From an uncultured archaeon (GTDB lineage: Archaea; Asgardarchaeota; Lokiarchaeia; Sigyniarchaeales; SOKP01), in assembly GCA_964525635.1 (NCBI GenBank), contig CAZGJX010000003.1:39465-103464 (forward strand): a stretch of 64,000 bases of DNA, in the 5' to 3' direction. Below the pieces are notes generated by a model. That model ran no database searches, was not told where the DNA came from, and saw only the letters and a list, made by a program, of their open reading frames with translations. The position numbers and the translations under genes are program-made. Below, piece after piece: positions 3,984 to 53,618 of the stretch; the stretch's first letter is position 1; each line of letters opens with the position of its first letter.

Positions 3984-4025
3984 TTTTCTTTAGAAAATTA
4001 AATTAATTATTTAAAGTATTAATAA

Positions 4026-4993: not shown

Positions 4994-4994
4994 A

Positions 4995-32095: not shown

Positions 32096-32118
32096 TTAAA
32101 TTAAAAAGAGGAAGTTAT

Positions 32119-32943: not shown

Positions 32944-32959
32944 AGAGGATTATTTTCAA

Positions 32960-32966
32960 TTTTTTT
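32960..32966 (+). terminator. oligo-T tract (T7) 17 nt after the stop
   Basis: An oligo-T run at the end of the 30383-32943 two-gene unit. Specificity is low. Confidence 0.25.
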
Positions 32967-33119
32967 GTAACTCAAATTATTTAGTCTAATAATTCTAATG
33001 ATAATAATTTAATAATCTATGAATAATCTTAAAAATAAATATAATTTATTTATAGTAAAATAATAAAATAATGAGCTAAAGGCAACAAAGAATAGGATAA
33101 AATAAAGGGAGATATAATA

Positions 33120-34604: not shown

Positions 34605-34658
34605 AAAATTCTATAATTTCATTTGAATATATTATTAGACAATTTCATTATGTAAAAT

Positions 34659-36038
34659 ATGATTAAAACTAAAAATAAAAAGCCTGAAAAAACAGATTCT
34701 GGATTGCAAATATTATTTGGATTTCCTAAATTCGGAACATCATTAATCCTAGGATTAGAAACATTTTCCATGTTTACCCTTTATCCAAGTATTTTTGGAT
34801 TGAATTACATTCTAACAGGAATTTCTTTAGCATTTGGTTATATATGTATAGCTTTAGGTCAATTAACTTTTGGATGGTTAAGTGATAGACGCTATACAAA
34901 ATTAGGAAGAAGAAAACCTTATCTTTTGATATTATCACCAGTATTAGGTTTATCTTTTATTTTTCTATTTCTGCCTAATATGTTCTTACCAAATATTGAT
35001 GATCAAATTATTTTATTTCTTTGGTTATTCACTTTTGAGGGTTTATTTAAATTTAGTTATGCAGTAACAATCCCTTATCAATCATGGATGGTAGAAGTCT
35101 TCCCTAATGAACAAAGACCAGAAGTATCTCAAATACAAAATATATTCAATTATATTGGGGTAGGTCTCATGGCAGTTATCACTTTTTTTATATTTGATGA
35201 GATATATGATTCTTTTAAAATTAATCCATATCTAATTCCAATCAAATATTTATCTATTGTTATAATCACAGGTATTACAATTTGGATAATATTTTATTTA
35301 ATAGTATTAGTTTTTCCAACGGAACCATATCACGAAATTAAACATACTGGTATCAAAGAAAGTATAAAGATTATGAAGGAGAATAAGGATTTAATGAGGG
35401 TAATTCTCTCAAATGGTATAGCAGCGATAGCATGGGCAATTTTTGCTAGTGGTACGTTACTCTTTAATAAAGAAGTATTAGGGTTAGAAAAAACACAATA
35501 TTTAATCATAGGAGTTTTTCTGGGAATTGGCACTTTACTTTTCCTATCTTTTTGGAGAGAAAGAATTGAATTAAAAGGAAAAAAAAAAATTCTTTTACAA
35601 TTATTGATTATAGCAACTATTTTATCACCAGTCACATTATTGGGCTTATTATGTGATTATATTTATCCATTAATTATAGGAATAATATTTACCACTTCAA
35701 TGGGATTAATAAGAGCAGGTTTGAATTTATTTCCATATATTATATATGCAGATATTTCCCAAGATAATGCAAAAAAATCAGGACAATTATTAGCAGGTAT
35801 CTTTACAGGATTCCCTCTAATGATTTTAAATGCGTTTCAAGCTCTTGGAATGATATTATTGGGTATTTTTGGTACCTTTCCAAAAATAACTATTAATTCA
35901 ATTGAATTTCCGATAGGATTAACTCTATGGGGACCAGTTTGTTCTATTATATTAATTATAGCTTATCTAATTACAAAAAAATATGTTATTTTAGATTTTG
36001 AATGGGAAAAGAAAAAAAATGGTAAAAAAGAAAAATAA
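34659..36038 (+). CDS. MFS transporter, glycoside-pentoside-hexuronide (GPH)-like
   Basis: Has about 12 hydrophobic segments and the GWLSDRRYTKLGRRKPYLL loop motif. Confidence 0.7.
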   Translation: MIKTKNKKPEKTDSGLQILFGFPKFGTSLILGLETFSMFTLYPSIFGLNYILTGISLAFGYICIALGQLTFGWLSDRRYTKLGRRKPYLLILSPVLGLSFIFLFLPNMFLPNIDDQIILFLWLFTFEGLFKFSYAVTIPYQSWMVEVFPNEQRPEVSQIQNIFNYIGVGLMAVITFFIFDEIYDSFKINPYLIPIKYLSIVIITGITIWIIFYLIVLVFPTEPYHEIKHTGIKESIKIMKENKDLMRVILSNGIAAIAWAIFASGTLLFNKEVLGLEKTQYLIIGVFLGIGTLLFLSFWRERIELKGKKKILLQLLIIATILSPVTLLGLLCDYIYPLIIGIIFTTSMGLIRAGLNLFPYIIYADISQDNAKKSGQLLAGIFTGFPLMILNAFQALGMILLGIFGTFPKITINSIEFPIGLTLWGPVCSIILIIAYLITKKYVILDFEWEKKKNGKKEK

Positions 36039-36052
36039 ATTTAGATAAAAGT

Positions 36053-36822
36053 TTAAACGTCTCGTGTTCTAAATCTTAGATAAGCAAGAATAATACTAGG
36101 AATTAAATAACATAGCAACATTACTACTACCCAATCGACTTTTAATATAATAACAATTTCTTCAGAGGTAACTTCACCTCCAAAAATAGATTGTCCGACT
36201 AATTCAGAATAAAAAGGGAAATAATAGGGGCTATTGACAAAAGCAAGGAGTATTCCAAAAGCAGCTCCTAATATAATCAGTGTAATAAAAGCCATAGTCA
36301 TAGCTTGAGAACCAGATCGGAAAATGGTACTATGTAATATATATATAGCCGCATAAGTGATTCCAGATAAGCAAGAAAGCCCAAACCATATAAATAATTC
36401 AGTTGGAATTTGTTGATAATATATAATTGAATAGATCATTAATTCAATCAAGCAAGGTCCAATCCATATTAAAATAATTGTTAAAACAGCAAGAGTTTTA
36501 CCAATAAAAAAGTTTGTTCTCCCTGTTTTAGTAAAATTTGTAAGTACTGTTCGTTTATCAAACTCATCTGTTAAAATTCCTCCTGCAAAAAATAGGGAAA
36601 TAATTAATATTATCATCCCATAATTTTGGGTTATGGAGGATAAAAACTCTTTCGGATTTGGTGGAAGAAAAAAACCAATGAGAATCCCATATAAATTTAT
36701 AATTAATATTCCTAAAAAGAGAAGATGTAAATATCTTTTCTTTTTAGAGATAATTCAAACTTATAAACTTCAGATATTAATCTTGGATTAGTTCCTCTTT
36801 TGATTTCTATATCAACGGACAT
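36053..36822 (-). pseudogene. ABC-2 type permease disrupted by a frameshift
   Basis: ATG at 36822 gives MSVDIEIKRGTNPRLISEVYKFELSLK.. The frame then changes in an A-rich run near 36745-36755 to ..KKKRYLHLLFLGILIINLYGILIGFF..MIILIISLFF.. (track ORF 36053-36616). Confidence 0.7.
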
Positions 36823-36823
36823 T

Positions 36824-37858
36824 TTAATTATAACCTCTTTTCTTTTTTAATTTAGAATCCGTTTCAATCAGATCTAGATATAAATCTTCTAGACGAGAAG
36901 ACCTGACTTTACTAAATCCAATTATAGGTAGCTTTAAATCTAATGATAAAATATCATGTATTTCTTTTCTCGATTTAGGCTTCCCATCATAGTATATATA
37001 GAATCCAGATAAATTTTCATTATATTGAACTATTGCTTTTGTATCTTCAACACAATAAGGAACGATTCTTTCAGATAAATCTTTAGTATAGTATTCAATT
37101 TTATTATTTTTGATAGGATCAAGTAATTCAACGGCTATTTCTTTTATTGTCATTTTTTGTTCAAGATTAACTATTTTATCAACAGCTATGAGTTCTCCAT
37201 GATTTATAATGGCAATTCTATCACAGATTTCAGATATTTCATATAGCATATGTGAAGATAAGAAAATTGTTTTTCCTAATTCTTTATTTTTTTTCATAAT
37301 GTTTCTTACTTGTACACGCCCTTCAGAATCCAATCCGGTTTGAGGTTCATCTAAAACAGCCACAACGGGATCATGAATAAGAGCTTGAGCCAATCCAAGT
37401 CATTGTGTCATTCCATTTGAAAATTCTTTAATCTTTTTATTTTTCCATTGGATCATTTCAACCAAATCTAATACCCAATCAATTTGCTGTTCTATTTTAT
37501 GTCTTGGAACACCTAATAAACTACAATAATAGCTAAGATTCATTTTTGGTGTTGCCTATCCATAAAAAGCGGGTATATCAATTAAAAAACCAAATTTTTT
37601 GTATAATTCTAATGGGTGATCATTTATATTAATAAAATCTCCATTACCTGTGTTAATTTCAATAAATCCAGAGGTTGGTTTAACTAATCCACCGAGCATC
37701 TTCATCGTAGCTGTTTTACCCGCACCATTTGGTCCTACAAATCCTAAAATCTCTCCTTTTTAAACTTCAAGATTCAATTTATTCACCGCTATAAGATCAC
37801 TATATTCCTTAGTTGTGTTATTAAATCTTGCGATAGTGTTATCTATCATATTTCTCAT
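36824..37858 (-). pseudogene. ABC transporter ATP-binding protein with three in-frame stop codons
   Basis: One frame reads [68 protein letters not shown]. The stops are TAA at 37760-37762, TAG at 37556-37558 and TGA at 37400-37402. Confidence 0.85.
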
Positions 37859-38089
37859 TTAATTTGATTTAGAATCATATCAATTATCTTTTGTTTGAAA
37901 AAAGTCATATTTAATTTTAAAAAGATTTGGAGTCCAATTTTTCAATTTATAAGAGTGCCATGACCTTAAATAAGAAAATATAATCAGATGTAACTTTTTA
38001 AAAAATAACTGAAATTGAATTAATCATTATAATTAAAATCAAAATTCTTTTAATTGATTTATTTTTATTAATTAAATAGAATAATCATA

Positions 38090-39502
38090 ATGAATATAAG
38101 GGAAATGTCAAAGTCAGGAATAGAACGATTAGAAGAATTAAAGTCAAAAATCTATCAATGTATTCATTGTAAGGCTTGTAGATTTGCCTATTCAGGTCAA
38201 CCAAGTAAGGAAGGCATTGGTGAATATGAAGGGAAACAGGGAAAAATTCTTTATGAAGGTATGATTGATTCCTGCCCTGCAGGTATTGAATATGGTTGGG
38301 AAGCTTTCTGGAATGCTGGGATAATCTGGATTGCTCGTTCTATTTTAAGTGGAGATCTAAATATTTCTGAATCCGTGAGAGATGTTATTATGCCATGTAT
38401 TACATGTGGAATGTGTTCAACTCAATGTGAAAATAAAATTCCAACTGTAGATATCATTGAAGCCTTAAGAGCTGCTTGTGTTGAGGCAGGTGTACCTTTA
38501 GTAGAAAAACATGAAGTAATTAAAAAATTAGTAGAAGAACTGAATAATCCGTATGGAGGAAAAGCTGAAGAACGTTTTCAATGGGTAAAGGATGCTGGTT
38601 TCGAAAAATATATTAACAATAAAGATGCAAAAATCGCTTATTATGTTGGATGTACAGCAAGTTATCGTCAAAAAGAAATCGCTATTGCAACCTGTAAAAT
38701 TTTTGAAAAGCTTGGAATTAATTTCACCCTGATCCGTGAAGAAGTTTGCTGTGGAAGTCCATTTTTCAGAATTGGAGCCACAGAAACAGCCCAAGAATTA
38801 ATGAAAAAAAATCTTGAGAGTTTTAAAAAAGTAAAAAAAATATTTTTCTCCTGTGCTGGATGTTATAGAACTTTTACAATTGATTATCCAAAATGGAATA
38901 AATCAAAAAAAAATCCATTTCAGACATTACATGCTTTTGAATTAATCACACAATTGATAATTGATGATAAAATTAAATTTAAAGCAAATAAAAATCTGAA
39001 GGATAAGGTAGTTACTTATCATGATCCATGTCATACGGGTAGACACTTTGGTATCGAATTTGAACAAGAACTTATTGAACAGAGTGAAAATTTAATGTTT
39101 GATATGAGGAAACTCAATGAAAAACTTGAGGAATGGTTTGAAAAACCACGTATCATTCTAAAAAAGTTAGAAGAAGATGTAGGAATTCAATTTAAAGAGA
39201 TGTATCGTATTAAAATGGATTCTATGTGTTGTGGGGCTGGAGGCGGAGTAAGAGCAGCTTATCCAGATTTCTCTCTAAAAACTGCAAGTCTAAGGTGTGA
39301 TGAAGCCAATGCTATAGGCGCAGATATATTAACCACAGAATGTCCCTTTTGTTTTCGAAATTTAAGTGATGCTAATGAGAAATTTAAACATGAATTACAA
39401 GTGTATGGATTATTGGAAATTATCGATAAATTCGATTTATTAGAGATAATAGATACTCCATCTGAAGAATATGTATTAGATTTAAGGAGAAATATTCTCT
39501 GA
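38090..39502 (+). CDS. Fe-S oxidoreductase with two 4Fe-4S motifs and two CCG domains (GlcF/HdrD-like)
   Basis: Has CIHCKACRFAY and CITCGMCSTQCEN, then ..VGCTASY..CCGSPF.. and ..HDPCHTGRH..MCCGAGGG...CPFC. Confidence 0.8.
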   Translation: MNIREMSKSGIERLEELKSKIYQCIHCKACRFAYSGQPSKEGIGEYEGKQGKILYEGMIDSCPAGIEYGWEAFWNAGIIWIARSILSGDLNISESVRDVIMPCITCGMCSTQCENKIPTVDIIEALRAACVEAGVPLVEKHEVIKKLVEELNNPYGGKAEERFQWVKDAGFEKYINNKDAKIAYYVGCTASYRQKEIAIATCKIFEKLGINFTLIREEVCCGSPFFRIGATETAQELMKKNLESFKKVKKIFFSCAGCYRTFTIDYPKWNKSKKNPFQTLHAFELITQLIIDDKIKFKANKNLKDKVVTYHDPCHTGRHFGIEFEQELIEQSENLMFDMRKLNEKLEEWFEKPRIILKKLEEDVGIQFKEMYRIKMDSMCCGAGGGVRAAYPDFSLKTASLRCDEANAIGADILTTECPFCFRNLSDANEKFKHELQVYGLLEIIDKFDLLEIIDTPSEEYVLDLRRNIL

Positions 39503-39612
39503 TATGAAATATCATTTATAGAATTTCTCACTTCTTCCTTTATTAATTAACCACAAAAAGGTTTTATCTAAGTGATTTTAGATTAGTTTATCAGTAATTT
39601 TAATAATTTTCT

Positions 39613-41142
39613 TTAAAAACTTATTACAGCAATCATTCCAATTATAATTAAACTTAAATTAATTGATAATATTATAACTTCCAATCTCCTACCCTTCTTT
39701 AAAAACCTAAGAATAAATGTTAAATTAACTATTAATGCTACATTAAAAATAAATAAAAGAAGAGCACGAATATTATCATCAATAGTAAATGAGGGTAAAT
39801 GAAAAAGATCACGAACTATAAATAAAATTCCATATAAAATTAAGCTAAATATTATTATTGCTAATATTGGTTCGAACTTCTTCTGCTTACGGATCCACTT
39901 CCCCAATTTATTATATGGATAAGCTATTAAAGTAATACCTATTAGCATAATAGGGAGGGAGATGAACCAAAAAGTTCCAAGATAAACACCATCAAAATAG
40001 TTATAAAATATAAGACTATTTGTTTTTACTGAAAGGTTATGTAGTATATAAATTGCAAATATCTCTCTACCAGGTAATTCAATTGCTTTCAAAACTTTAT
40101 TTGGTTTTTTTTTTATCATGGTAAAAGCGAATATAAGAACAGAATATCCTATCATAGGAAAAATAAATGTTCTAATAATATTTGTAAAAGGAATGTGAAT
40201 ATCTGGTATATTTAGAATTATAAAAGCACGGCTATCTGTAGTTAAATAGCTTCTATTTCCCCATGGATGCATAAAAGATGCTAAAATCAGGTATAATCCA
40301 ATAAAAAATGTCAAAGATATAAAAGAAATATTCCTGATTGTTACACTTTCCTTTAATTTTTTTAAATTTGCCATATTATCTTGACTTAACCAGTATCCAA
40401 ACATAACTCCAAAAAAGAATGAGAAATATTTTGGCGGTAACATATACATACCTTCAATATATAGATCTTGGTTTAGAAGATCTTTACTTAAATCTATAGA
40501 TAATTCATTTAAATTTGTATAAAAAATAACATAAAGAACATAAAGAATAATGACTGAAATTAATGTAATATAGAAATATCTTCTTACCAAATAATAAAAT
40601 AGTGGAAAAATTAAATATACCGATAAAAGAAAAGTAATAAACCAATAATGGGCGCAAATCCCCCAGAAATTAGTTCGAGTAGCAAAAGGATATGATTGTA
40701 ATCCACTTAGATATAATAAATCATTATCTAAAGAATAAGGTCTTAAATCATCTTGTTGGAAGTAAAAAATAAAGATGATATTTATTATTACACCTAAAAT
40801 AAATAAAGGAAAGATCCTTATTAATCTACTTTTATACCATTTTAACCACGAATGGTTTTCTCTTTTTCGTGTCTCTATACCAATTACCAACAACATTCCA
40901 ATAAAAACTATGATAACTTCAACCGTAGGATATCCAATCTCTATTAAAAACATGAAAATTGGATGTCTAGTATCTTTAGAAAATGGAATAAATGACATAT
41001 TCCAATGTTGGACAACAGTGAATAAAATAAAAATAGCTTTTAATAGATCTATTGCTGAGGAAGTACCTGGATCAATAGGTAACTTGCTTCTTGGAACTTT
41101 TTCTAAATTTATTATTGATTCTATTTCATTATTTTCCGTCAT
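39613..41142 (-). CDS. membrane acyltransferase, acyltransferase-3 family-like
   Basis: Has the N-terminal SAIDLLKAIFILFTVVQH motif followed by about 10 TM segments. Confidence 0.55.
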   Translation of the reverse strand: MTENNEIESIINLEKVPRSKLPIDPGTSSAIDLLKAIFILFTVVQHWNMSFIPFSKDTRHPIFMFLIEIGYPTVEVIIVFIGMLLVIGIETRKRENHSWLKWYKSRLIRIFPLFILGVIINIIFIFYFQQDDLRPYSLDNDLLYLSGLQSYPFATRTNFWGICAHYWFITFLLSVYLIFPLFYYLVRRYFYITLISVIILYVLYVIFYTNLNELSIDLSKDLLNQDLYIEGMYMLPPKYFSFFFGVMFGYWLSQDNMANLKKLKESVTIRNISFISLTFFIGLYLILASFMHPWGNRSYLTTDSRAFIILNIPDIHIPFTNIIRTFIFPMIGYSVLIFAFTMIKKKPNKVLKAIELPGREIFAIYILHNLSVKTNSLIFYNYFDGVYLGTFWFISLPIMLIGITLIAYPYNKLGKWIRKQKKFEPILAIIIFSLILYGILFIVRDLFHLPSFTIDDNIRALLLFIFNVALIVNLTFILRFLKKGRRLEVIILSINLSLIIIGMIAVISF

Positions 41143-41494
41143 ATAAACAAATTTTAAAATAATATATGAATATTAAATTTAATTTAATACTATAAAGGTA
41201 ATTATGATTAAATCATCTATTTTTCGCAAATCCAATAATTCTTGATTATGATTGTTAATATCAGCTATAATTAACTAAAAATTTATAAAAACAAAAAACC
41301 AATCAAATAAATTCCTCGATGATTATAATTATCATAAAAATAAAATTTTCATATAAATCTGTTGAAAAATTTAGCTTATAGTTATCCTAAGAAAAAAATA
41401 ATCATAAGGAGATTGAATAAATTAATTTAGAAAAAAATACTTGCAGATTTTAAATATCATTTAGAATTGATAAGAAGAGAAGATTTTTGGTATA

Positions 41495-44089
41495 ATGAAT
41501 ATATTATTTGAAAAGATCTTAAAATATAAATTTGAGATCATTTGTTTTACTATATTCTTCTATTTTTTATTATATTTAAGGGTCATTACTCCTTATCACG
41601 ATACTTACTTAGAATGGAAATTTGATCCTTATCACGATACTTACTTAGAATGGAAATTTGATTGGGATTTTTATAGACTTATGTACAACGATATAACAAT
41701 TGTCTTTAACCGGGAGAACCCAGAGGTTATAGCTCCTTTTTGCTATAGGATTTTAACACCACTTGTAGTAAGATTATTTCCTTTTGAAGACATGACTTTA
41801 AACTGGGGATTATATAGTTTTATTTTTATTTATTTAACGGGTATAGTGCTTTATTTTATATTTAGAATTTATTTCAATAAATATATCTCAATGGTGGGAC
41901 TTATTTTATTCTGTTATTTGTGCTTTACCTCTCCAACGATTCCTTCATTTGGTGATAGTATATATGATTATTATTTTATGCAATACTATTTTTACATGGT
42001 TTTTCATGTTGATCCTTTAGCGTATTTTCTTTTAATGTTATGTTTCTATAGTATTTTAAAATCAAATAAAAAATTATTTTGTATTTCTCTCTTATTAGGT
42101 ATATTAACAAAAGAATCTATTCTATTCACAATTCCGGTGTATTTAATCCATGAATATTTAAAGAGAAGAAAAATCAAGAATCGAGAAAAATCAATCTATA
42201 ATTTTCTAAACGGTTTTAAACCCATAGTACCAACTATATTAATCTTTATTTTAATGAGAATTATAATTACTCCAAAATCTTCCTTAGAAGAAGTCTATTG
42301 GGATGAATACTATCAAGGAAATGAATATATGTCATTAGGAATGATAGAAGTGTTATTAAAGTATTTAATTTCCGATTATCATGATTTTGGCTGGGGTATA
42401 TTGGATTATTCAATTCTTTTTTGGAGTCCACTATTATTTATTTTATTTTGTTTTAATAAAAAGAAAGATGTCTTCAATTGGTTTAAATTATATAGTGTTT
42501 TTATAGCTGCTATATATTTTCAAATGATGATAGCAGGTGAAAGATCTCGTGCTCTCTTTTTTGGTTTTTTCCCAATACTTTTATTAGCGGTTTCTGGAGT
42601 AAATAATATTTATGAAATTATCCAAAAAAAAATCAATTATCGAAAAGCAAAAAAAGAGAATAATAACTTACCAATTAAAGAGGTTTTAATAAAAAAAGAA
42701 GAATTAATCCCATTGGATCCTATTTCACAATCCCAATTATTTTTTAAGCATCCTATTCTTCCAGAGGTACTTTATGGTGCTGTTATTTTAAGAGGGAAGT
42801 TGAAATTGGATGTATTAAATAATTCATATAAAAAAGTTATGGAAAAAAATCCTCATCTTCACGATATTTTAATTAAAAAGCGTGTGGGTGTGTTTTATAA
42901 AATATTTAGAAAACCTATTCAACCTCTCCCAATAGGAGAAATTAATTTGGTAAATTCAAATCTTCCATATCGGGAAAGATTACTTGAACATTTTAAATCT
43001 TCATTATCTAAGCATATTGATCCATTTAGAGAACCGACTTTTTATGCATATTATGTAAAATTAGATGAAAATATATTTGCTATTGCTTACATTTCTCATC
43101 ATACTACATTGGATGGAATTGGATTTGTAAATTTTTATCAGGAATTATTTTCATATTATTATAAAGAAATCTATAAAAAAGAAAGTGAGTGGTCGAAGTC
43201 AGTAGGATTTATAAGCCTTAGAGATAAAAAAAATGAGGGTAATATAAAAATGGTCCCTTTAATTAAGCCACGATTTTCAATTAAAAAAACTATAAAAACA
43301 ATAACAGTATTTTTATCATTTAGAAAAGCCCGAAAATTCACAATAAACCGTCCTTTATCTGAACTAAGCCATGCAAACCTTTTAAAAATCGAAAAAAATA
43401 CTTTAAAGAAAATAAAACAATATGGAAAATCACTTAATTCTACTGTAAATGATGTTTTATTAGCATTATTATTTAGAACACTCTTTATTATATTTCCTGA
43501 GATAGAGAATAAAAAAAAAACCCATTATACAATAAGCGTACCAATTAATATTAAGAAAAAAATATCACCTAATAAAAGGATTATAAATAACATGACAAGC
43601 CTTTTTATTAGCATAGAAGGTTCTCAATTTAGAAATGTGGAAAAGATACTTAAAATAATAAACACAACCAAGAAAAAACAAATTGAAATGGGATTAGATA
43701 TTTATCAATATCATGTTTTACGCATATTATTAAAAATCACTCAATTATTTCCCTTTAATCTAAGTCGGAAATTATTTCATAAGTTATTTCAATTCCCATT
43801 TACGTCATTATTTAGTAATTTTGGGATATTATGGCCTGAAATTGTTGATGGAGGCGTTACGGGGAAAAGTTTCTTAACAAAAATTGGAGACGAACTTGAA
43901 ATATTAGATGTAGATTTGGGTTATTCTCTACTTCCCCATATTGGACATGAATTTGTTACTTTTACTTATCGAGAGCAACTTCATATTTATCTTTCTACTT
44001 ATGATGCATTTTTTTCTAAAGAACAATCAAAAAGATTTATAGATGTATTCCATCAAGAAATAGAAAAATTATCAAATAAAAAAAGCTAA
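41495..44089 (+). CDS. fusion of a polytopic membrane domain with a condensation/WS-DGAT-like acyltransferase domain
   Basis: The N-terminal ~390 aa are hydrophobic. The C-terminal half carries ISHHTTLDGIGF (HHxxxDG) and TVNDVLLALLFRTL. Confidence 0.6.
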   Translation: MNILFEKILKYKFEIICFTIFFYFLLYLRVITPYHDTYLEWKFDPYHDTYLEWKFDWDFYRLMYNDITIVFNRENPEVIAPFCYRILTPLVVRLFPFEDMTLNWGLYSFIFIYLTGIVLYFIFRIYFNKYISMVGLILFCYLCFTSPTIPSFGDSIYDYYFMQYYFYMVFHVDPLAYFLLMLCFYSILKSNKKLFCISLLLGILTKESILFTIPVYLIHEYLKRRKIKNREKSIYNFLNGFKPIVPTILIFILMRIIITPKSSLEEVYWDEYYQGNEYMSLGMIEVLLKYLISDYHDFGWGILDYSILFWSPLLFILFCFNKKKDVFNWFKLYSVFIAAIYFQMMIAGERSRALFFGFFPILLLAVSGVNNIYEIIQKKINYRKAKKENNNLPIKEVLIKKEELIPLDPISQSQLFFKHPILPEVLYGAVILRGKLKLDVLNNSYKKVMEKNPHLHDILIKKRVGVFYKIFRKPIQPLPIGEINLVNSNLPYRERLLEHFKSSLSKHIDPFREPTFYAYYVKLDENIFAIAYISHHTTLDGIGFVNFYQELFSYYYKEIYKKESEWSKSVGFISLRDKKNEGNIKMVPLIKPRFSIKKTIKTITVFLSFRKARKFTINRPLSELSHANLLKIEKNTLKKIKQYGKSLNSTVNDVLLALLFRTLFIIFPEIENKKKTHYTISVPINIKKKISPNKRIINNMTSLFISIEGSQFRNVEKILKIINTTKKKQIEMGLDIYQYHVLRILLKITQLFPFNLSRKLFHKLFQFPFTSLFSNFGILWPEIVDGGVTGKSFLTKIGDELEILDVDLGYSLLPHIGHEFVTFTYREQLHIYLSTYDAFFSKEQSKRFIDVFHQEIEKLSNKKS
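41591..41662 (+). repeat. perfect 36-bp tandem duplication (2 copies), in frame
   Basis: ccttatcacgatacttacttagaatggaaatttgat occurs at 41591-41626 and again at 41627-41662, encoding PYHDTYLEWKFD twice. Confidence 0.95.
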
Positions 44090-45222
44090 TTTTTTTCTAA
44101 ATAGTCAGGTATATCATAATTCCATTCCTTTAAAGCAAAATCCCAATATTTCTTAACCTTTTCTATTGTAGAAATACTATATACATATTTATTCTTTTTA
44201 TAATTTGCAGTTTCTTTAAGATAGTCTTTAAAAAGAGGTTTAATATCTTCAAATCCATTCAATTTGAACTTTTGATAGATTTTTTTTAATTGCTTAATTG
44301 GATTCTCTTCTAAATCTTTAAAGGTAAGTTCAATGTAATTTTCTTCTGGAATTAAATCTTTCTCTTTTAAGAAAGTAAGCATCATATCTTTATATATCGT
44401 TATTATGTTTTTATCAATTTCTTTTTTGGAAATTGGTTGCAAATTGAGCCATGGTAATACAGAATCATATAATTTATGAGTTGACATATAAATTTCAAAA
44501 GGATTTCTATGAATATTGATAAACTTTGCGTTGGGGAATAATTCCAAGAGAATTTTTATACGAACAGTATTAGCAGGGTTCTTTATAACGAGAGACTTCC
44601 TTCTAATGTAGTATTTCGCTTTCTTTAATAACTCAAGATAAACTCTTTTCCATTCTTCCTTCACTTTGGATGGAACTTTTTTTAAACATGTGTATTTTAT
44701 ATAATTCTCTATCATTTGTTGAGGAAAATACCAACTAACATAAAATCCATAAGGACATAAACTTCCTAAAGCAAATTCATCTTCTTGTGGCTCATCAACT
44801 CCAATTTTTACATTATCTTGGGGACGTGTATCTGGCATAAAAACTTTCATCATATTTCTGAAAATTTTAAGATATATAAATGATTTTGGAAAAAAAGCTT
44901 GAGTCATTGTGACGTACCCAAATTGAGGGTCTTTACATAGTAAATTATGAAGATGAGTTGTACCACTCCTCCAATGACCTAAAATAATAACAGGATCATC
45001 TGGTAATTTAACTTTCTCAACAATTTTCTTTAATTTCTTAGATTCAAGATAACGAACTGGTATTCCAATCATATTTATAAGAACAATCCCTACTAATCTT
45101 GGAAAATATTTTTTAGATATCGTTCGATTCATGACAAGGATTCTTATTAAATTTCTCAATGAACCTCCTATAGCAGGATTTATTGATCTCTTCTTTTTCT
45201 GTTTCTTATCATTTGAAACCAT
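44086..45222 (-). CDS. PAPS-dependent sulfotransferase family protein
   Basis: Has the 5'-PSB motif GHWRSGTTHLHNLL and a 3'-PB-like IHRNPFEIYMS. Its stop overlaps the stop of the 864-aa gene by 4 nt (convergent). Confidence 0.75.
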   Translation of the reverse strand: MVSNDKKQKKKRSINPAIGGSLRNLIRILVMNRTISKKYFPRLVGIVLINMIGIPVRYLESKKLKKIVEKVKLPDDPVIILGHWRSGTTHLHNLLCKDPQFGYVTMTQAFFPKSFIYLKIFRNMMKVFMPDTRPQDNVKIGVDEPQEDEFALGSLCPYGFYVSWYFPQQMIENYIKYTCLKKVPSKVKEEWKRVYLELLKKAKYYIRRKSLVIKNPANTVRIKILLELFPNAKFINIHRNPFEIYMSTHKLYDSVLPWLNLQPISKKEIDKNIITIYKDMMLTFLKEKDLIPEENYIELTFKDLEENPIKQLKKIYQKFKLNGFEDIKPLFKDYLKETANYKKNKYVYSISTIEKVKKYWDFALKEWNYDIPDYLEKN

Positions 45223-45357
45223 TATCCCTAACCTCTTATAAAGTTTTAATATCTAACCAGTTAGTAAGGTAAATCTTTTTTTTGTATTAAATCTATAGCT
45301 TATTCGAATATCTTGGTAAACTTAAACTTTTTAAAAATAAAAAATTTTTAAAATTAT

Positions 45358-46659
45358 ATGAGAAAAATAAAACCAAAAAGGATTATATATTTGGGTTTTA
45401 TACTTTTATTATTGTTTTCAAACCTCATAGCTTTTTATATTTTTAGTTATAATGATTGGTTAGAGGGATATTTTGATGTTCAAAGAAAAGAAAATGGAAA
45501 CACCCTTATTTGTAGACTTCCTTTGGCAGAAATATTTGAACATCCTAAAAGAGTGGCAAACCAAATACCAGTAAAGCCAAATAGTTCTGGTCATAAAATA
45601 TTTGAAGTTGATCAATATAAAAATGTTGTATGGGAATTCAGTGGTTTAGCATATCCTCATGATATGGAAGTGCTTCCAAATGACCATATATTAGTTGCTG
45701 ATACTGCTTATGATCGAGTTATAGAAATTAATTATCCCAACAAAGATATAGTATGGAGTTGGGAACCTGCAAAAATAAATTGGACAGAAGTAAATCCTGA
45801 GTGGATAGATAAACCTCTCTTGCCACATTATTATTTACATAATTTTACTTATGATTGGACTCATCTTAATAATGTTGAATTTAAGAATTATGGAAGCTAT
45901 GATGCATGTTTAATTTCTATAAGAAATTTTGATTTAATCGTTGAAGTAAATTATACTGCTGAAAGAATTGGGCCTTCAAACAATCCAGATAATATAATCT
46001 GGTGGTATGGAGATTATAGGAATGTTACTTTAATAAGTCGTCAGCACAATCCAATATATACAAGTTATGGTACTATTTACATTCCAGATTCAGGAAATAA
46101 CCGCATTATTGAAATAAATATGACAACTAATAAAATTATCTGGAATTATAGCAAAGGACTTGATTGGCCTAGAGGAGTGGATAAATTAGAGAATGGAAAT
46201 CTTTTAATCACAGATTCATTACATAATAGAATTATTGAGATTGAGAAGGATAGTAAGAAAATTGTTTGGAGCTATACCAGAGATTTAATTATTCCCTATG
46301 ATGCTGATAGATTAGAGAATGGAAACACGCTAATAAGTAATGGATATAGTGGAATTGTTTATGAAGTAAACAGAGCAGGGGAGATAGTTTGGCGCTATGG
46401 TCTATCCTTTGATAAGAGTATGATTTACTTAAATGTTATCATTATGCTTGGATTTTCCTCAACGGCAATTATATTTATATCAAAAGATATTATTAAAAGA
46501 AGAGAATTAACTAAATTTAGGAAAGAAATAAAGGGAATAAAGATTGGAATCTTAATTATCCCAATTATATTTAGTTTGTTAGTACTTTTTAGCTATACTA
46601 CTATTATTGGAAACTTAGTGATCGAGACTATGAAAAACATATTATTAAGTTATAGATAA
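45358..46659 (+). CDS. membrane-anchored beta-propeller protein, arylsulfotransferase (ASST)-like
   Basis: An N-terminal TM is followed by repeated blades ..D(R/N)(V/I)IEIN...IVW(S/N)(W/Y).., then DWTHLNNVEF..LISIRNFDLIVEVNY (D.tH.N...S.R motif), then C-terminal TMs. Confidence 0.55.
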   Translation: MRKIKPKRIIYLGFILLLLFSNLIAFYIFSYNDWLEGYFDVQRKENGNTLICRLPLAEIFEHPKRVANQIPVKPNSSGHKIFEVDQYKNVVWEFSGLAYPHDMEVLPNDHILVADTAYDRVIEINYPNKDIVWSWEPAKINWTEVNPEWIDKPLLPHYYLHNFTYDWTHLNNVEFKNYGSYDACLISIRNFDLIVEVNYTAERIGPSNNPDNIIWWYGDYRNVTLISRQHNPIYTSYGTIYIPDSGNNRIIEINMTTNKIIWNYSKGLDWPRGVDKLENGNLLITDSLHNRIIEIEKDSKKIVWSYTRDLIIPYDADRLENGNTLISNGYSGIVYEVNRAGEIVWRYGLSFDKSMIYLNVIIMLGFSSTAIIFISKDIIKRRELTKFRKEIKGIKIGILIIPIIFSLLVLFSYTTIIGNLVIETMKNILLSYR

Positions 46660-46701
46660 ACACTTATTGATATTAAAATCGATAAAATTTTATTCAAAAA
46701 T

Positions 46702-47052
46702 TTATTTTTTTTTTAAAAAATCAGGTATTATTCCTTTAAGTCCCAAACTTTTCAAGATTGTTTCTTTTATATCCATTTGTAGCTTAAATTCAGACATTTG
46801 TTTTACAGTATTCTCCAAAGAAGTTGAAAAGTTAAGACTCATATCTTTGATTGTTTTCGACATAAGATCAAATGATTCCTTCATAGTGATATTGGTATCT
46901 TGAAGTACAGAACTCATCTTATTAACAGAATTAGAAATTTCTGAACTAAAAGTAATTAAATTTACTGAGAGGTTTTTTATTTGTTCTGCTATAGCTTTCA
47001 TCTCAGTATTCATTTTAACAAGTTGTTCGTTAAGATCTTTTATTCCCAACAT
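46702..47052 (-). CDS. small coiled-coil protein, unknown function
   Basis: A 116-aa ORF with a heptad-like pattern. I prefer it over the overlapping plus-strand ORF 46667-46903, which looks like a shadow ORF. Confidence 0.35.
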   Translation of the reverse strand: MLGIKDLNEQLVKMNTEMKAIAEQIKNLSVNLITFSSEISNSVNKMSSVLQDTNITMKESFDLMSKTIKDMSLNFSTSLENTVKQMSEFKLQMDIKETILKSLGLKGIIPDFLKKK

Positions 47053-47159
47053 TATATTTCTGATAATGTAATTTGTTTAAAATATTTAAATAATTTCTAA
47101 TGCTTTTTAATTATAACTTATTAATTATCATAATTTCAATAAGAATTTAAGAATAAAAA

Positions 47160-47924
47160 ATGAGCGAAAATAATAATAAAAATAGATTCTTTAAAATGGC
47201 AGATATTTATGATAAGCTAGCTCAGTATCTTGTGCCAAAATATGACTATCTACAAGAGGAAGTAATAGATCTTTTACCTTTTAATATAAATAGACAATAT
47301 AATGTTATAGATTTAGGTGCGGGAAGTGGGATTTTTTTAGAAAGATTTTTAAAAAAATATCCAAATGTTAAATGTTTTTGGATTGATTATTCTGATGATT
47401 TTCTAAATGTAGCAAAAAATAGATTGAATAAATACAATAAAAGGATTAATTTTATAATATCTCCAATAGAGGAGGATTGGACAAAATTAATTCATGAAAA
47501 AGTTCATTTAATAACTTCTATGTCAGCAATTCATCATTTAGAAACCCAAGAAAAAAAAGAATTATATAAAAGATGTTATGATTTGTTAGAAGAAACGGGT
47601 TGGTTTTTTAATATAGATGAGATGAAAACATTAAATTTTGATGCTTATAAAAGTAGTTTAGAAAGATGGTATAAACATGGTGAAGAAATTAAAAAAAAAA
47701 TTCCTAACCATTTACTCAGTTCTTATAAACTATTAAAAAATCAATTTGATAATTGGAAAATAAGAAATCTTGATAATATTGAAAAGCCAAAAACTAAGGG
47801 GGATGATATACATGAAACATTTATAGATCAAATTAATTGGTTGAATGAAATTGGATATAAAAACGTTGATCTTTTTATTAAACATCATCTTTGGTGTGTA
47901 ATTGGAGGACAAAAATTGAATTAA
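47160..47924 (+). CDS. class I SAM-dependent methyltransferase
   Basis: Has motif I, VIDLGAGSGIF, and a post-I acidic residue (WIDYSD). Confidence 0.8.
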   Translation: MSENNNKNRFFKMADIYDKLAQYLVPKYDYLQEEVIDLLPFNINRQYNVIDLGAGSGIFLERFLKKYPNVKCFWIDYSDDFLNVAKNRLNKYNKRINFIISPIEEDWTKLIHEKVHLITSMSAIHHLETQEKKELYKRCYDLLEETGWFFNIDEMKTLNFDAYKSSLERWYKHGEEIKKKIPNHLLSSYKLLKNQFDNWKIRNLDNIEKPKTKGDDIHETFIDQINWLNEIGYKNVDLFIKHHLWCVIGGQKLN

Positions 47925-48569
47925 TTACATTATATTTCTTCCTGCTAATTCATCTTCAAGGTATTGATCTCCATAATTTTGTCTTATTTTTTCTAACCAT
48001 TCATTTGTTTTAATTTTAACCATCCCTACACGATTTCCCTTTATTTTTTCTATTGTTTTACAAACAACTCCTTCTTTTAAATTATATTTATTTTTTCTTA
48101 CAGATTCTATAAACTTTAGAGTTAAAGGTCCTTCATAAATCATTCTTGGGGTTCCAAGATGTCCAAAATCTTCAATAAATTCTTTTGGAGGTATAATTCC
48201 CTTTCCAATTGGATTTACATCAAATAATATTAAATCAAGTTCATCATCAGGATTATGTCTACCTGCAAAAGAATGTGGTCCGACCCATTCACAAAAAACA
48301 ATGGCTTTTTTTGTTTTATTATATTTAGGATTACTTTTAAAAATATATACCAATTCTTTTGCATATTTTAGCATAAACAATGAAATAGCAGCACTAAATT
48401 CTTTATGTGAAGGATTAATTATCATTCTTCGTGTACCAAATTGATACCAACCCATTTTTTTGGACCATTCAAAACGCATATTATTCCCGTCCAGTTTATC
48501 GAATGCTATTATTTCTTTACCTAGTAGTAATTTACCAACAAAATATGGAATAGATACATATTGCTTCAT
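47925..48569 (-). CDS. ATP-dependent RNA ligase-like nucleotidyltransferase (Rnl2/REL-type, adenylyltransferase domain only)
   Basis: Has motif I FDKLDGNN, III VFCEWVG, IIIa LILFDV, IV EGVVCK and V MVKIKT. Confidence 0.7.
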   Translation of the reverse strand: MKQYVSIPYFVGKLLLGKEIIAFDKLDGNNMRFEWSKKMGWYQFGTRRMIINPSHKEFSAAISLFMLKYAKELVYIFKSNPKYNKTKKAIVFCEWVGPHSFAGRHNPDDELDLILFDVNPIGKGIIPPKEFIEDFGHLGTPRMIYEGPLTLKFIESVRKNKYNLKEGVVCKTIEKIKGNRVGMVKIKTNEWLEKIRQNYGDQYLEDELAGRNIM

Positions 48570-48780
48570 TTTTCGACCATTTTAATATATATTATTAACT
48601 ACTCTTTTGGAATATCATAAAATTAACCATTAACTTATTATCATTCTATTTTGATAAGGAATTATTATTTATATTAATATTTAGTTAAAAATTTTAAGGT
48701 AATAATAAATATATTTTATACATTCAAATTTCTTAATTTTTAAATGTGTAATATGACTATTCTATTTTAAGTGATATTTT

Positions 48781-49968
48781 ATGATTAAACAATTTAATTT
48801 TACTAATATTCCCAAAATAATATTTGGCTCAGGAAAACTTCAAGAGCTTTATAAAATAATTCCAGATTTTGGGACGAATATTTTATTTGTTATTGGAAAG
48901 AGTTCTCTAAAAAATTCAGGTAAATGGAAAGAAATTACACATAACATAGAAGGAAAAGATTTTAGTTTTTCTCATGTTTCAATTTTAGGAGAACCATCTC
49001 CTTCAATTATTGATAAAATAACATCAGAACTGAGAAATAAATCAATTGATTTAATTATTGGAATAGGAGGAGGAAGTGTAATAGATGCTGGAAAAGCTAT
49101 ATCCGCTATGTTAACCAAAGAAGAGTCTATAACAAATTATTTAGAAGGTGTTGGTTATAAACAACATAATGGATCAAAATTACCATATATCGCTATCCCT
49201 ACTACATCAGGTACTGGAAGTGAGGCAACTAAAAATGCTGTAATAAGTCAAGTTGGCCCACATGGATTTAAAAAATCTCTTAGGCATGATAATTTTGTTC
49301 CGAATATCACAATTATCGATCCTGAATTAATGATCACCTGTCCATCCTCAAAAACAGCAGCTTGTGGAATGGATGCTTTCACCCAATTACTTGAAACATA
49401 TGTTTCTTCAATTGCAAATCCAATAACGGATGCTTTAGCTTTTAGTGGAATAAAAGTGATGAAAGATAATCTTATACCTGCTTGTACTTCTGGATCGAAT
49501 GATATAAATGTAAGAAGTGGGATGGCATATGGAGCTTTAATGTCAGGAATAACATTAGCAAATGCAGGTTTGGGAATAGTGCATGGATTGGCATCACCAA
49601 TAGGAGGTTTTTTCGATATTCCTCATGGTATAGTATGTGGAACTCTTTTATCTAATGCAACAAGAATTAACATAGAAAGATTAAAAGAAATAGGTCAAAA
49701 AGGAAGGAAATCCTTAAAGAAATATGCTGAAATTGGAGCATTAATTTTAAATCAATATAATGTGGAAGAAAAGAAGATAAATCATTATTTAGATACTTTA
49801 TTGAAGACATTAGATAAATGGACAAAAGATCTAAATATAGAAAGATTAGGATCTTATGGAATTACTGAAAATGATATAGATAAAATAATAAAAAATACAA
49901 GTCTGAAAAACAATCCAGTAGATTTAACAGCTAGAGATATAGAAACAATAGTAATTAATAGATTATAG
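48781..49968 (+). CDS. iron-containing alcohol dehydrogenase
   Basis: Has GIGGGSVIDAGKAI, PTTSGTGSE and the metal-binding HG..H region. Confidence 0.9.
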   Translation: MIKQFNFTNIPKIIFGSGKLQELYKIIPDFGTNILFVIGKSSLKNSGKWKEITHNIEGKDFSFSHVSILGEPSPSIIDKITSELRNKSIDLIIGIGGGSVIDAGKAISAMLTKEESITNYLEGVGYKQHNGSKLPYIAIPTTSGTGSEATKNAVISQVGPHGFKKSLRHDNFVPNITIIDPELMITCPSSKTAACGMDAFTQLLETYVSSIANPITDALAFSGIKVMKDNLIPACTSGSNDINVRSGMAYGALMSGITLANAGLGIVHGLASPIGGFFDIPHGIVCGTLLSNATRINIERLKEIGQKGRKSLKKYAEIGALILNQYNVEEKKINHYLDTLLKTLDKWTKDLNIERLGSYGITENDIDKIIKNTSLKNNPVDLTARDIETIVINRL

Positions 49969-50053
49969 ACCAATTTATAAAAAATTTTAGTAATATTTTA
50001 ATTATACCAATATATACTTAATATAGCTAATAAATATCTAAGGAATAAAAATA

Positions 50054-50155
50054 ATGAAGATGCTTCAAAATATAAAAGATAATTATAATATGAGCAATTT
50101 GGGGCAAGTTTTATCCTTAGGTTTACTTTTAAATTTACTTTTATTATTATTATAA
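50054..50155 (+). CDS. candidate leucine-rich leader peptide (33 aa) upstream of leuA/cimA
   Basis: Encodes MKMLQNIKDNYNMSNLGQVLSLGLLLNLLLLLL*. 11 of the last 14 codons are Leu (9 TTA, 2 CTT). An AGGA lies 10 nt upstream of the ATG. The ORF is too short to appear in the ORF track. Confidence 0.4.
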   Translation: MKMLQNIKDNYNMSNLGQVLSLGLLLNLLLLLL

Positions 50156-50159
50156 AGCG

Positions 50160-50214
50160 CCTTCTAATGTTTTATAAGATTTGATAATTCTACTTCTTAT
50201 AAACATCTAGAAGG
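50160..50214 (+). promoter_or_regulatory. imperfect 18-bp stem / 17-nt loop hairpin between the leader ORF and leuA/cimA
   Basis: CCTTCTAATGTTTTATAAG (50160-50178) pairs with CTTATAAACATCTAGAAGG (50196-50214) with two 1-nt bulges. The stem starts 4 nt after the leader stop codon. Confidence 0.45.
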
Positions 50215-50253
50215 TTATTGAATTAATACACAGTTTAAAGTAGGTAAAAGAAA

Positions 50254-51867
50254 ATGGTGGAAATGGATGAAATAAGTGTTTCAGGAATGATGGAAAAGAT
50301 TAGGAATACTCTTACTCTTCCGGAGAAGGCATATTTTTTTGACACAACTCTTCGTGATGGAGAACAAACACCAGGTATAAGTTTTACTCATGAAGAGAAG
50401 CTATCAATTGCCGAAGCACTTAGTAATTTAGGAATAGATATTATTGAAGCAGGATTTCCCATAACTTCTGAAGGAGATTTTACCGCTTGTAGAGATATCG
50501 CCAAGCTTGGATTGAATTCTGAGGTAATTGGATTAGCTAGAATGAAAAGAATTGATATAGACAGAGTAATAGAGGCAGACATGGACAGTATTCATGTTTT
50601 TATTTCAACTTCAGACTTACATCTAAGAGAACAAATAAAAATGACGAGAGATCAGGTAATAGACTGTATTATTGAAGAAACTACATATGCAAAAGAGCAT
50701 TATAATACAGTATTATTTTCTGCTATGGATGCGACTAGAACAGATTTAGATTATCTAATAAAAGCAAACTTAACTGCAGTTGAATGTGGTGCAACACGGG
50801 TTAATATCCCAGATACCGTTGGAACGATTACACCCACTGCTTTTGGACATATTATTAAAAAAAATTATGAAGTTTTACCTAAAAATATAAGGATTGCTGT
50901 TCATTGTCATAATGATTTTGGTCTAGCAGTTGCAAATACTATTGCTGGTTTTGAGAATGGTGCTTCTGAAGCTCAAACGGCTATCATGGGTCTTGGAGAA
51001 AGGGCTGGAAATGCCTCTTTTGAAGAGACTGCAATGTCCTTTTACGCTCTATATGGATTGCCTATGAACATTAATACAAGACTAATATTTCCAACAGCTA
51101 AATTGGTAGAGAGTTATTGTGGTGGAAAAATAAAGATTGGACGCTTGCAACCTCTAATAGGACAAAATGCTTTCGCACATGAGGCTGGAATTCATGTAGC
51201 TGGGCAGATTAAACATGCAAGAACTTTTGAACCAATAACTCCTGAATTGATAGGAATTAAAAGAACCGATAATCTAGAAGAAATAGTCAAACAATCTATA
51301 AAACTTGGAAAACATACAGGAAGTCATGGATTAAGAGCAAAATTATCTGATCTAGGATTAAATCCAACAGAAGAACAGTTTAAGAAAATCTTTGACCATG
51401 TTAAAAGTTTTGGGGATAAAGGACACGAAGTCTCAGAGGAGGATCTCTTTGCTATAGTTAAAGACGTGATGGGAGAGCTTCCAGAAGTAGAACAATATGT
51501 GATACTTGAAGAACTTACAGTCTTGACTGGTTCAGTAACTCCTACCTCAACAGTTAGATTAAGAATTAGGGACAATGGTTCCTCGATTCGTAAAACTGCT
51601 TCTTCGGTAGGAGTTGGTTCTGTTGATGCTTCTATTAAAGCAATTGTAAAATGTTTTGGACCAATGAGTAAAGTAAAACTACTTGAATATAATATTGATG
51701 CAGTTACAGGAGGGACTGAAGCATTGGGTCATGTAACAATTGAATTAATGGATCTGGATACAAATCAAATTGTAAAAACAAGTGCCACTCATGAAGATAT
51801 TGTAATGAGTTCTGTGCTTGCACTTCTTAAAGGTCTAAATCAAATAATGAAGTATAAGAGTGAATAA
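50254..51867 (+). CDS. leuA: 2-isopropylmalate synthase / (R)-citramalate synthase family
   Basis: Has FFDTTLRDGEQTPG, HCHNDFGLAVANT and a C-terminal LeuA-dimer-type regulatory domain. LeuA and CimA cannot be separated by eye. Confidence 0.9.
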   Translation: MVEMDEISVSGMMEKIRNTLTLPEKAYFFDTTLRDGEQTPGISFTHEEKLSIAEALSNLGIDIIEAGFPITSEGDFTACRDIAKLGLNSEVIGLARMKRIDIDRVIEADMDSIHVFISTSDLHLREQIKMTRDQVIDCIIEETTYAKEHYNTVLFSAMDATRTDLDYLIKANLTAVECGATRVNIPDTVGTITPTAFGHIIKKNYEVLPKNIRIAVHCHNDFGLAVANTIAGFENGASEAQTAIMGLGERAGNASFEETAMSFYALYGLPMNINTRLIFPTAKLVESYCGGKIKIGRLQPLIGQNAFAHEAGIHVAGQIKHARTFEPITPELIGIKRTDNLEEIVKQSIKLGKHTGSHGLRAKLSDLGLNPTEEQFKKIFDHVKSFGDKGHEVSEEDLFAIVKDVMGELPEVEQYVILEELTVLTGSVTPTSTVRLRIRDNGSSIRKTASSVGVGSVDASIKAIVKCFGPMSKVKLLEYNIDAVTGGTEALGHVTIELMDLDTNQIVKTSATHEDIVMSSVLALLKGLNQIMKYKSE

Positions 51868-52015
51868 TTAAATTTTATTTTTAGCTTCTCTATCTTTTTA
51901 TATTATATTTCTTGCTTTTTCAAAAAAAGAAGATATCAGAAAAATATATTCTCTATATTTAAAAATAACCATATCTTATTTCTTTACAAATAATTATAAA
52001 TTTAAATGAGAATAT

Positions 52016-53506: not shown

Positions 53507-53618
53507 TTTAATATCTTTTTTCTTTTATTTTCTATATATTTTTAACAATAATGTTTTTTTAAAATTATTTTATATTTATCCACTATAGAGTATCTAATTA
53601 TTCTGAGACTTCTATAAA

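Follow-up and report, generated by a model that had tools for sequence, protein, structure and literature searches.

A candidate cell-surface glycoconjugate tailoring locus in a Sigyniarchaeales archaeon, with a recurrent GT-C/AT3/ASST-like core

We analysed a 64,000-nucleotide stretch of DNA from an uncultured Asgard archaeon of the order Sigyniarchaeales (assembly GCA_964525635.1, contig CAZGJX010000003.1, positions 39,465 to 103,464; hereafter, the window). Four adjacent genes (Table 1) encode an acyltransferase-3 (AT3) family membrane enzyme, a fusion of a membrane domain to a condensation-type acyltransferase domain, a sulfotransferase of the 3′-phosphoadenosine-5′-phosphosulfate (PAPS) type, and a beta-propeller resembling arylsulfate sulfotransferases (ASSTs). 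In our assessment the chances are about even that this locus is an Asgard cell-surface glycoconjugate tailoring cluster, consisting of a conserved core (a GT-C-fold glycosyltransferase, an AT3 enzyme and an ASST-like protein) and two lineage-specific cytoplasmic add-ons. The folds, families and catalytic motifs of these proteins and the recurrence of the core module in relatives are established by the analyses below. From them we infer the topology, the substrates, the order of steps and the link of the sulfotransferase to the other three genes.

All four open reading frames (ORFs) were confirmed at the coordinates of a first-pass annotation, which had been made from the sequence alone. Its family assignments survived profile searches: the AT3-like membrane enzyme scores above the cut-off of PF01757, the sulfotransferase with its RSGTT PAPS-binding motif matches PF13469, and the membrane-anchored ASST-like propeller, recognized by a D.tH.N / S.R pattern, matches PF05935. 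The description of the second gene as a membrane domain fused to a condensation/WS-DGAT (wax ester synthase/diacylglycerol acyltransferase)-type domain stood for the condensation part (PF00668, with an HHTTLDG motif) and not for WS/DGAT, whose profile TIGR02946 is matched far below its cut-off (26.4 versus 309.95 bits). That annotation missed that the genes lie on alternating strands, that two of them overlap convergently by 4 bp, and that the membrane domain of the fusion is itself an enzyme fold.

This membrane domain, the N-terminal half of the fusion, contains about 10 hydrophobic segments. Its AlphaFold2 (AF2) model, built from a 42-sequence alignment, is confident (pLDDT 91.1, pTM 0.91), and the first 31 matches in a Foldseek search of the model against the PDB are all GT-C enzymes, among them STT3, PglB, AglB, ALG9/12, PigU, PMT, ArnT, AftA and PimE (best E = 3.6e-3; TMq 0.30-0.54; the top matches have a probability of about 1). 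By its modelled fold, the N-terminal half is a predicted GT-C membrane glycosyltransferase, a member of a superfamily central to N-glycosylation, glycosylphosphatidylinositol anchors and mycobacterial envelopes. Because the membrane half has this fold, the earlier idea of an envelope glycan or glycolipid is strengthened; that the product is a sulfated, acylated glycoconjugate is plausible.

The likeness to known GT-C enzymes (STT3/AglB/PglB, ArnT, PMT, ALG9/12, PimE) covers the fold, a conserved acidic position (D56) in external loop 1, a size near that of PimE (about 380 aa), and glycan-related neighbouring genes. Unlike those enzymes, the family has no sequence match to a GT-C family in Pfam or to any PDB chain, and indeed no Pfam family matches any of its members. 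It is found mainly in, and is almost restricted to, Asgard archaea, with the best homologues (up to 46% identical) in Asgard metagenome-assembled genomes (MAGs), and the window protein is its sole copy fused to a condensation domain. Weak or remote matches to NCBIfam NF046093, 'cell surface glycopolymer formation protein', were obtained for 26 of 42 family members (best E = 4e-11).

Residues D56, Y60, P81, R85, P89, D173, G202, K206, E207 and R255 are invariant or nearly so in this family. D56, located between the first and second transmembrane (TM) helices, does not vary among the 10 closest relatives, and its conservation over the 42 sequences is at least 90%. The second copy of an exact tandem duplication of PYHDTYLEWKFD ends at this aspartate, and AF2 confidence drops at the duplication. 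Strongly basic loops of the N-terminal half (residues 189-193, 220-233 and 321-331, and the linker at 377-390) all fall on one side of the membrane, with acidic loops opposite. By the positive-inside rule this arrangement suggests an N-in/C-in topology, so that the linker and the condensation domain would be cytoplasmic, where thioester donors are.

To survey the surroundings of this family, we used an alignment of the 10 closest GT-C sequences as the query of a locus search, which returned 19 genome and 22 metagenome loci, and screened their ORFs with the window proteins. Collapsing near-identical contigs gave 13 non-redundant loci with close GT-C relatives. An AT3 gene is present in eight of these and an ASST-like protein in six, and most of the others are too short to tell. 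With ASST-like proteins beside the GT-C family in six non-redundant loci, the position of a propeller next to a GT-C gene in the window is unlikely to be accidental.

In its recurrent form, the cluster has a minus-strand gene for a protein of 1,675-1,686 aa, a tandem pair of GT-C paralogues on the plus strand and, again on the minus strand, one AT3 gene or two. This order (giant ASST-like protein, GT-C, GT-C, AT3) is seen in loci L015, L016 (twice), L017, L038, L039/L019/L042 and L009/L010/L047. The giant proteins have a signal or TM segment at the N-terminus, a ConA-like DUF1349 domain, a TM anchor at the C-terminus and a pair of ASST-type propellers, which match PF05935 (1.9e-19) as well as PF14269 and each carry DW[TV]H[LV]N...LRN. 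In L015 (3107-8158), L016 (4559-9586) and L017 (4720-9780), all on the minus strand, the giant gene lies directly upstream of the two tandem GT-C genes and AT3. L017 also has a PMT_2 GT-C gene, and L010 a 551-aa ASST. All of the enzyme superfamilies involved were already known; new are the GT-C family without a Pfam entry, the singleton fusion, and the recurrent module with its giant double-propeller proteins.

The AT3 protein of the window matches the PF01757 (Acyl_transf_3) profile from position 3 to 322 of 326 (E = 2.7e-20, 73.1 bits against a cut-off of 31) and shares 29% identity (E = 3e-35) with the AT3 that adjoins the GT-C paralogues in L009. It is polytopic, with at least 10 hydrophobic segments, and its translation reads K35-x10-H46 in the first TM helix, where the AT3 family has an R/K-x10-H motif. 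In these features, and in adjoining glycosyltransferases, it resembles the surface-glycan O-acyltransferases of the OafA/OafB/Oac type. It differs from them in having no fused SGNH domain and in carrying an extra C-terminal block of about three TM helices.

The propeller matches PF05935 (Arylsulfotrans) with 30.8 bits against a cut-off of 24.2, over profile positions 92-208 of 374 only, and also matches NHL. Its orthologues, 46-57% identical across Asgard phyla, match PF14269 too. The protein carries the motifs DWTHLN (166-171), SIRN (187-190) and QHNP (229-232). TM helices are predicted at both ends, one at the N-terminus and two to three at the C-terminus, and the AF2 model (pLDDT 92.9) shows one and three, respectively; given these helices, the propeller should lie outside the cell. 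Foldseek finds generic NHL/YncE propellers, among which the ASST Cpz4 (9kf6 and 9kf4) takes 3rd and 11th place. When residues 95-250 were searched against the PDB as a single sequence, designer 'Pizza' NHL proteins crowded the results and no ASST was aligned. The family profile matches Cpz4 (9kf4, 9kf6), aligning YDWTHLN / SIRN / WWYG with YDYVHIN / SGRN / IWRLG of Cpz4, after which a QH motif follows in both. H169-x-N171 and R189 thereby align with the DxxHxN...SxRN of Cpz4.

The characterised ASST Cpz4 uses sugar hydroxyls as acceptors (PMC13426309), and the published ASST active site comprises His436 (the sulfo-histidine), His252, His356, Asn358 and Arg374 (PMC13426309). The DxxHxN...SxRN...QH set of the propeller would correspond to His356/Asn358/Arg374/His436. 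Judged by spacing and the QH motif, rather than by structural superposition, H101 would be equivalent to His252 and H230 to His436. The resulting candidate catalytic set (H101, H169, N171, R189 and H230) is kept in 35-38 of 39 family members, with H101 and H230 each present in 38. These motifs make the propeller a predicted, candidate ASST-type sulfuryl transferase. Like the ASSTs of E. coli and Streptomyces (Cpz4), it would be an extracytoplasmic, six-bladed propeller with a PF05935 match; unlike them, it has no beta-sandwich domain at its N-terminus, is tethered to the membrane by both ends and is much shorter. As a side observation, an HGSNAT_cat-type transmembrane acetyltransferase (L011, 6626-7618) lies about 5 kb from another 433-aa propeller orthologue.

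The C-terminal half of the fusion matches PF00668 (Condensation) with 37-39.5 bits against a cut-off of 30.6 over residues 430-557, and its HHTTLDG motif lies at residues 535-541 (nt 43097-43117). The match to TIGR02946 is weak, as given above. Against the PDB, the family profile from 37 relatives retrieves nonribosomal peptide synthetase (NRPS) C/E domains at 1e-29, PapA5 (1q9j) at 1.8e-14 and WS/DGAT (6chj) at 3.5e-8. The second histidine of the HHxxxDG motif (H536) is invariant in the 37 relatives and D540 is at least 90% conserved. PapA_C (PF16911) is matched by 10 of the 37, and the window protein matches PF00668 only. We rejected assignment to PapA, given the missing PapA_C match and the better score of NRPS C/E domains than of PapA5. 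Family profiles instead place the domain as a condensation-superfamily acyltransferase of the free-standing type.

The two halves occur together in no other protein we found. An exhaustive HMMER scan of 1.84 billion representative proteins yielded 280 relatives of the 864-aa protein, none with both halves, and the GT-C-condensation fusion is a singleton in that set. Relatives of the N-terminal half are membrane proteins of roughly 330-430 aa that stand alone, and those of the C-terminal half are stand-alone condensation-like proteins of 450-470 aa or NRPS C domains. The match ranges delimit the junction: homologues of the N-terminal half stop at query residues 372-384, and the closest Asgard condensation homologue (P0126) begins at residue 400. 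A word-indexed homologue search with the full protein returned only the protein itself, and exact look-ups returned no record.

Over 29613-41988 and 43798-55118, the window is matched at 100% identity by independent Logan and JGI (Joint Genome Institute) contigs. They all break inside the fusion gene, and the interval 41989-43797, which includes the domain junction, is covered by none of them. One break coincides with the 36-bp duplication, which short-k assemblers are unable to traverse and at which a Logan contig ends; an independent JGI contig (L037) carries the duplication too. A mis-join at a non-homologous point is unlikely, and both flanks are consistent with one locus; the fusion itself comes from a single MAG assembly.

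The remaining gene encodes a soluble sulfotransferase without any hydrophobic segment. It matches PF13469 (Sulfotransfer_3; E = 1.2e-28, 101 bits against a cut-off of 27) and has a 5′-phosphosulfate-binding (5′-PSB) loop, GHWRSGTT, at residues 82-89 (RSGTT at 85-89) and a 3′-phosphate-binding (3′-PB) motif, HRNP...S, at residues 238-247 (R239...S247). Neither motif varies among 28 relatives. Asgard genomes commonly encode this large family, for which more than 4000 homologues were found; the best of them, from Loki-, Hod-, Hermod- and Promethearchaeota, reach about 50% identity. A profile of the family identifies 2zq5 and 2z6v as the nearest solved relatives, matched over the full length at E ~ 2e-14. 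We take these structures to be mycobacterial Stf-type (Stf1/Stf3/Stf9-type) sulfotransferases, and some homologues are named by JGI 'omega-hydroxy-beta-dihydromenaquinone-9 sulfotransferase' (Stf3-like). The window enzyme differs from the mycobacterial ones in its low identity to them and in belonging to a family that is widespread and solitary in Asgard genomes. PF09037, the Stf0 trehalose sulfotransferase family, gave no match at E <= 0.1. In a published survey, APS (adenosine 5′-phosphosulfate) kinase and PAPS reductase are reported for Hod-, Gerd- and Heimdallarchaeota only (bioRxiv 10.1101/2020.10.19.343400). The literature searched contained no paper on Asgard sulfotransferases or on a GT-C/AT3/ASST-like module, and none was found on AZOBR_p60025.

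An HHxxxDG acyltransferase beside a sulfotransferase had led the first-pass annotation to the logic of mycobacterial sulfolipid assembly (PapA1/PapA2 plus Stf0), a proposal that did not hold up. The Mycobacterium tuberculosis sulfolipid-1 (SL-1) pathway uses Stf0, PapA2, PapA1, Pks2 and MmpL8. By analogy, a cytoplasmic sulfotransferase would sulfate a disaccharide to which the HHxxxDG enzyme adds fatty or polyketide acyl groups, giving a sulfoglycolipid. The adjacency of the two activities fits this scheme, as do the presumed mycobacterial Stf-type identity of 2zq5 and 2z6v and the appearance of PapA5 among the PDB matches of the C-terminal half. The analogy fails at the family level, however, because there is no Stf0 (the enzyme being of the Sulfotransfer_3 family), no clear PapA (the C-terminal half having no PapA_C match and scoring far better with NRPS C/E domains), and no polyketide synthase (PKS) or MmpL. 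A Pfam scan of window ORFs of 120 aa or more found no PKS, FadD, MmpL, Chp or Sap anywhere in the 64 kb. Moreover, the sulfotransferase-condensation pair was found nowhere else in the loci examined, and the host is an archaeon, which may not make suitable acyl donors. We consider an SL-1-like pathway very improbable.

A tailoring cluster could work as follows. The GT-C enzyme would move a sugar from a polyprenyl- or dolichyl-phosphate carrier on the external side of the membrane, its likely catalytic base being Asp56 in external loop 1, and AT3 would attach O-acyl groups, probably acetyl, to the same glycan from across the membrane. Outside the cell, the propeller, with its candidate ASST catalytic set, could move a sulfuryl group without PAPS. 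Two activities would be added to this core in the window: an HHxxxDG acyltransferase domain on the cytoplasmic C-terminus of the GT-C enzyme, and a soluble PAPS-dependent sulfotransferase. The most likely target of these cytoplasmic activities would be the precursor on its lipid carrier, or some other lipid acceptor, prior to flipping. The part assigned to the sulfotransferase comes from its adjacency in a single genome.

Several observations weigh against such a cluster. The genes alternate in strand (- + - +) and hence form four separate transcription units instead of an operon, with the fusion and sulfotransferase genes convergent. The co-location in relatives on which the first-pass annotation had set store was seen for GT-C, AT3 and ASST-like genes, which recur together, and not for the add-ons: a sulfotransferase or a condensation (HHxxxDG) gene occurs in none of the 13 non-redundant loci. 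Sulfotransferase orthologues (about 50% identical) are solitary among unrelated genes in three distinct contexts, and P0126 and a bacterial condensation homologue, whose neighbourhood is uninformative, are both solitary too. Orthologues of the 433-aa propeller occur in two contexts without a GT-C or sulfotransferase neighbour. NHL propellers score equal to or better than ASSTs against the propeller, fitting it as well by fold and better by sequence, and the E. coli ASST is not among its matches. The Foldseek E-values behind the GT-C assignment are modest (3.6e-3 and weaker, TMq at most 0.54). No PAPS synthesis (sat/cysC), flippase or nucleotide-sugar genes lie within the 64-kb window, and the one Asgard glycoproteomics study found in the literature searched describes neither sulfated nor acylated glycans for its archaeon (PMC11284389).

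The main alternative draws on several of these points. Here the AT3 enzyme and the fusion alone would cooperate, the sulfotransferase would be a housekeeping or small-molecule enzyme and the propeller would belong to another conserved neighbourhood, so that the island is a chance juxtaposition of the sulfotransferase, and possibly also the propeller, with the AT3/GT-C pair. The alternating strands, the changing neighbours of the sulfotransferase orthologues and the propeller orthologues without GT-C or sulfotransferase neighbours all favour it. So does what appears to be a decayed ABC transporter just upstream, which suggests local rearrangement. A further argument comes from L013 (5040-10308, on a 991-kb Asgard contig), where a propeller orthologue stands beside FAD_binding_4 and CCG genes as in the window (33120-46659), suggesting that AT3, fusion and sulfotransferase were inserted. 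This synteny is weak because the FAD and CCG proteins, inverted in L013, are only 31-32% identical to those of the window, and we down-weighted it as evidence of insertion. Chance juxtaposition is also countered by the ASST-like propeller proteins that adjoin the same GT-C family in six non-redundant loci. Furthermore, an Asgard glycan operon pairs a sulfotransferase with a GT-C relative: in a Thorarchaeota locus (L031, 9730-15639), genes for a distant GT-C relative, GT2, GT2, an Asn-synthase-like protein, GT2 and Sulfotransfer_3 are co-directional. This cluster is an independent hint that PAPS-type sulfation may be tied to Asgard glycan synthesis. On balance we regard chance juxtaposition as a real possibility, though a doubtful one.

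Another alternative is a two-step sulfate relay like that of caprazamycin, in which the cytoplasmic PAPS sulfotransferase charges a small aryl or lipid carrier and, after export, the ecto-propeller sulfates a surface sugar made by the GT-C enzyme. The sulfotransferase and propeller genes diverge from each other across 135 bp, the predicted location of the propeller is outside the cell, on the side of the membrane without access to PAPS, and Cpz4, its closest characterised relative by profile, sulfates sugar hydroxyls. Cpz4 follows a type III PKS and a PAPS-dependent sulfotransferase in its pathway. The window, by contrast, contains no type III PKS or other evident carrier-forming gene, and the sulfotransferase-propeller adjacency is not conserved in five distinct orthologue contexts. 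This relay strikes us as distinctly improbable.

A more far-reaching version envisages a hitherto undescribed extracytoplasmic Asgard system for glycan decoration, made up of the new GT-C family, AT3 and membrane-anchored, PAPS-independent ASST-type enzymes, including the 1,680-aa double-propeller proteins, in which the fusion couples thioester-dependent acylation to glycosyl transfer within a single polypeptide and the PAPS sulfotransferase feeds a trans-membrane relay. We judge this version unlikely as a whole. The recurrent module, if its reading is true, would provide concrete candidate genes for surface-glycan modification in Asgard archaea, the closest prokaryotic relatives of eukaryotes, and would put forward, for the first time, extracellular sulfation without PAPS in archaea. 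To our knowledge, little is known of Asgard cell surfaces. The new family would also widen the GT-C superfamily, and the fusion, if real, would be a natural experiment joining cytoplasmic acylation to extracytoplasmic glycosyl transfer.

Table 1. Features of the locus, in window positions
Feature	Position	Strand	Basis
AT3-family polytopic membrane O-acyltransferase (predicted), 509 aa	39613..41142	-	PF01757 profile match
Divergent intergenic region AT3/fusion, 352 bp, AT-rich	41143..41494	.	Sequence reading
Whole fusion gene, 864 aa	41495..44089	+	
Fusion N-terminal half, aa 1-385, predicted GT-C-fold membrane glycosyltransferase	41495..42649	+	AF2 and Foldseek
Exact 36-bp tandem duplication, PYHDTYLEWKFD x2, aa 33-56, external loop 1	41591..41662	+	Sequence
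Basic linker, ~14 aa, YRKAKKENNNLPIK..., joining the fusion halves	42650..42691	+	Homologue match ranges
Fusion C-terminal half, aa 400-864, condensation/PapA-like acyltransferase domain (predicted), free-standing type	42692..44089	+	PF00668
Soluble PAPS-type sulfotransferase (predicted), 378 aa	44086..45222	-	PF13469
Divergent intergenic region sulfotransferase/propeller, 135 bp	45223..45357	.	
Membrane-anchored six-bladed propeller, predicted extracytoplasmic, ASST/NHL type, 433 aa	45358..46659	+	PF05935, AF2

The divergent region between the AT3 and fusion genes presumably holds the promoters of both, and the one between sulfotransferase and propeller might allow their shared regulation. 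The window, which belongs to a 108-kb contig, is AT-rich (about 27% GC), and no tRNA genes or Rfam elements were found in it. Homology places the host as a Loki/Promethearchaeia-like Asgard archaeon: the best homologues of the sulfotransferase (about 50% identity), the propeller (up to 57%) and the membrane half (up to 46%) all come from MAGs of Loki-, Thor-, Hod-, Hermod-, Heimdall- or Promethearchaeota, and contigs of relatives carry Asgard hallmarks (Arf/Ras-family GTPases, Roadblock). Base composition does not mark the four genes as foreign (GC 0.25-0.29, against 0.27 in the flanks).

Directly downstream of the propeller (46702-47924) lie a 116-aa ORF without a family match and a class I S-adenosylmethionine-dependent methyltransferase gene, which could provide an extra tailoring step or be unrelated. 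Upstream, fragments of an ABC-2 transporter occupy 36053-38000, between a major facilitator superfamily (MFS) gene and the CCG genes. They comprise the 187-aa C-terminal half of a permease, several ORFs of about 40 aa, and a 189-aa ORF with a TTG start that resembles the C-terminal part of an ABC ATPase and has no Pfam match; from their sequences, these remnants look like a decayed operon.

Elsewhere in the window, a 1,004-aa protein (25683-28697) has an unusual architecture, combining alpha-alpha toroid repeats of the prenyltransferase/terpene-cyclase type (residues 456-605) with an ABC-transporter ATPase (residues 709-852), and a 1,475-aa protein (59174-63601) has a weak Prenyltrans match. 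A complete and ordinary tryptophan biosynthesis operon (trpD, C, F, B, A, E, G) is located at 228-7081.

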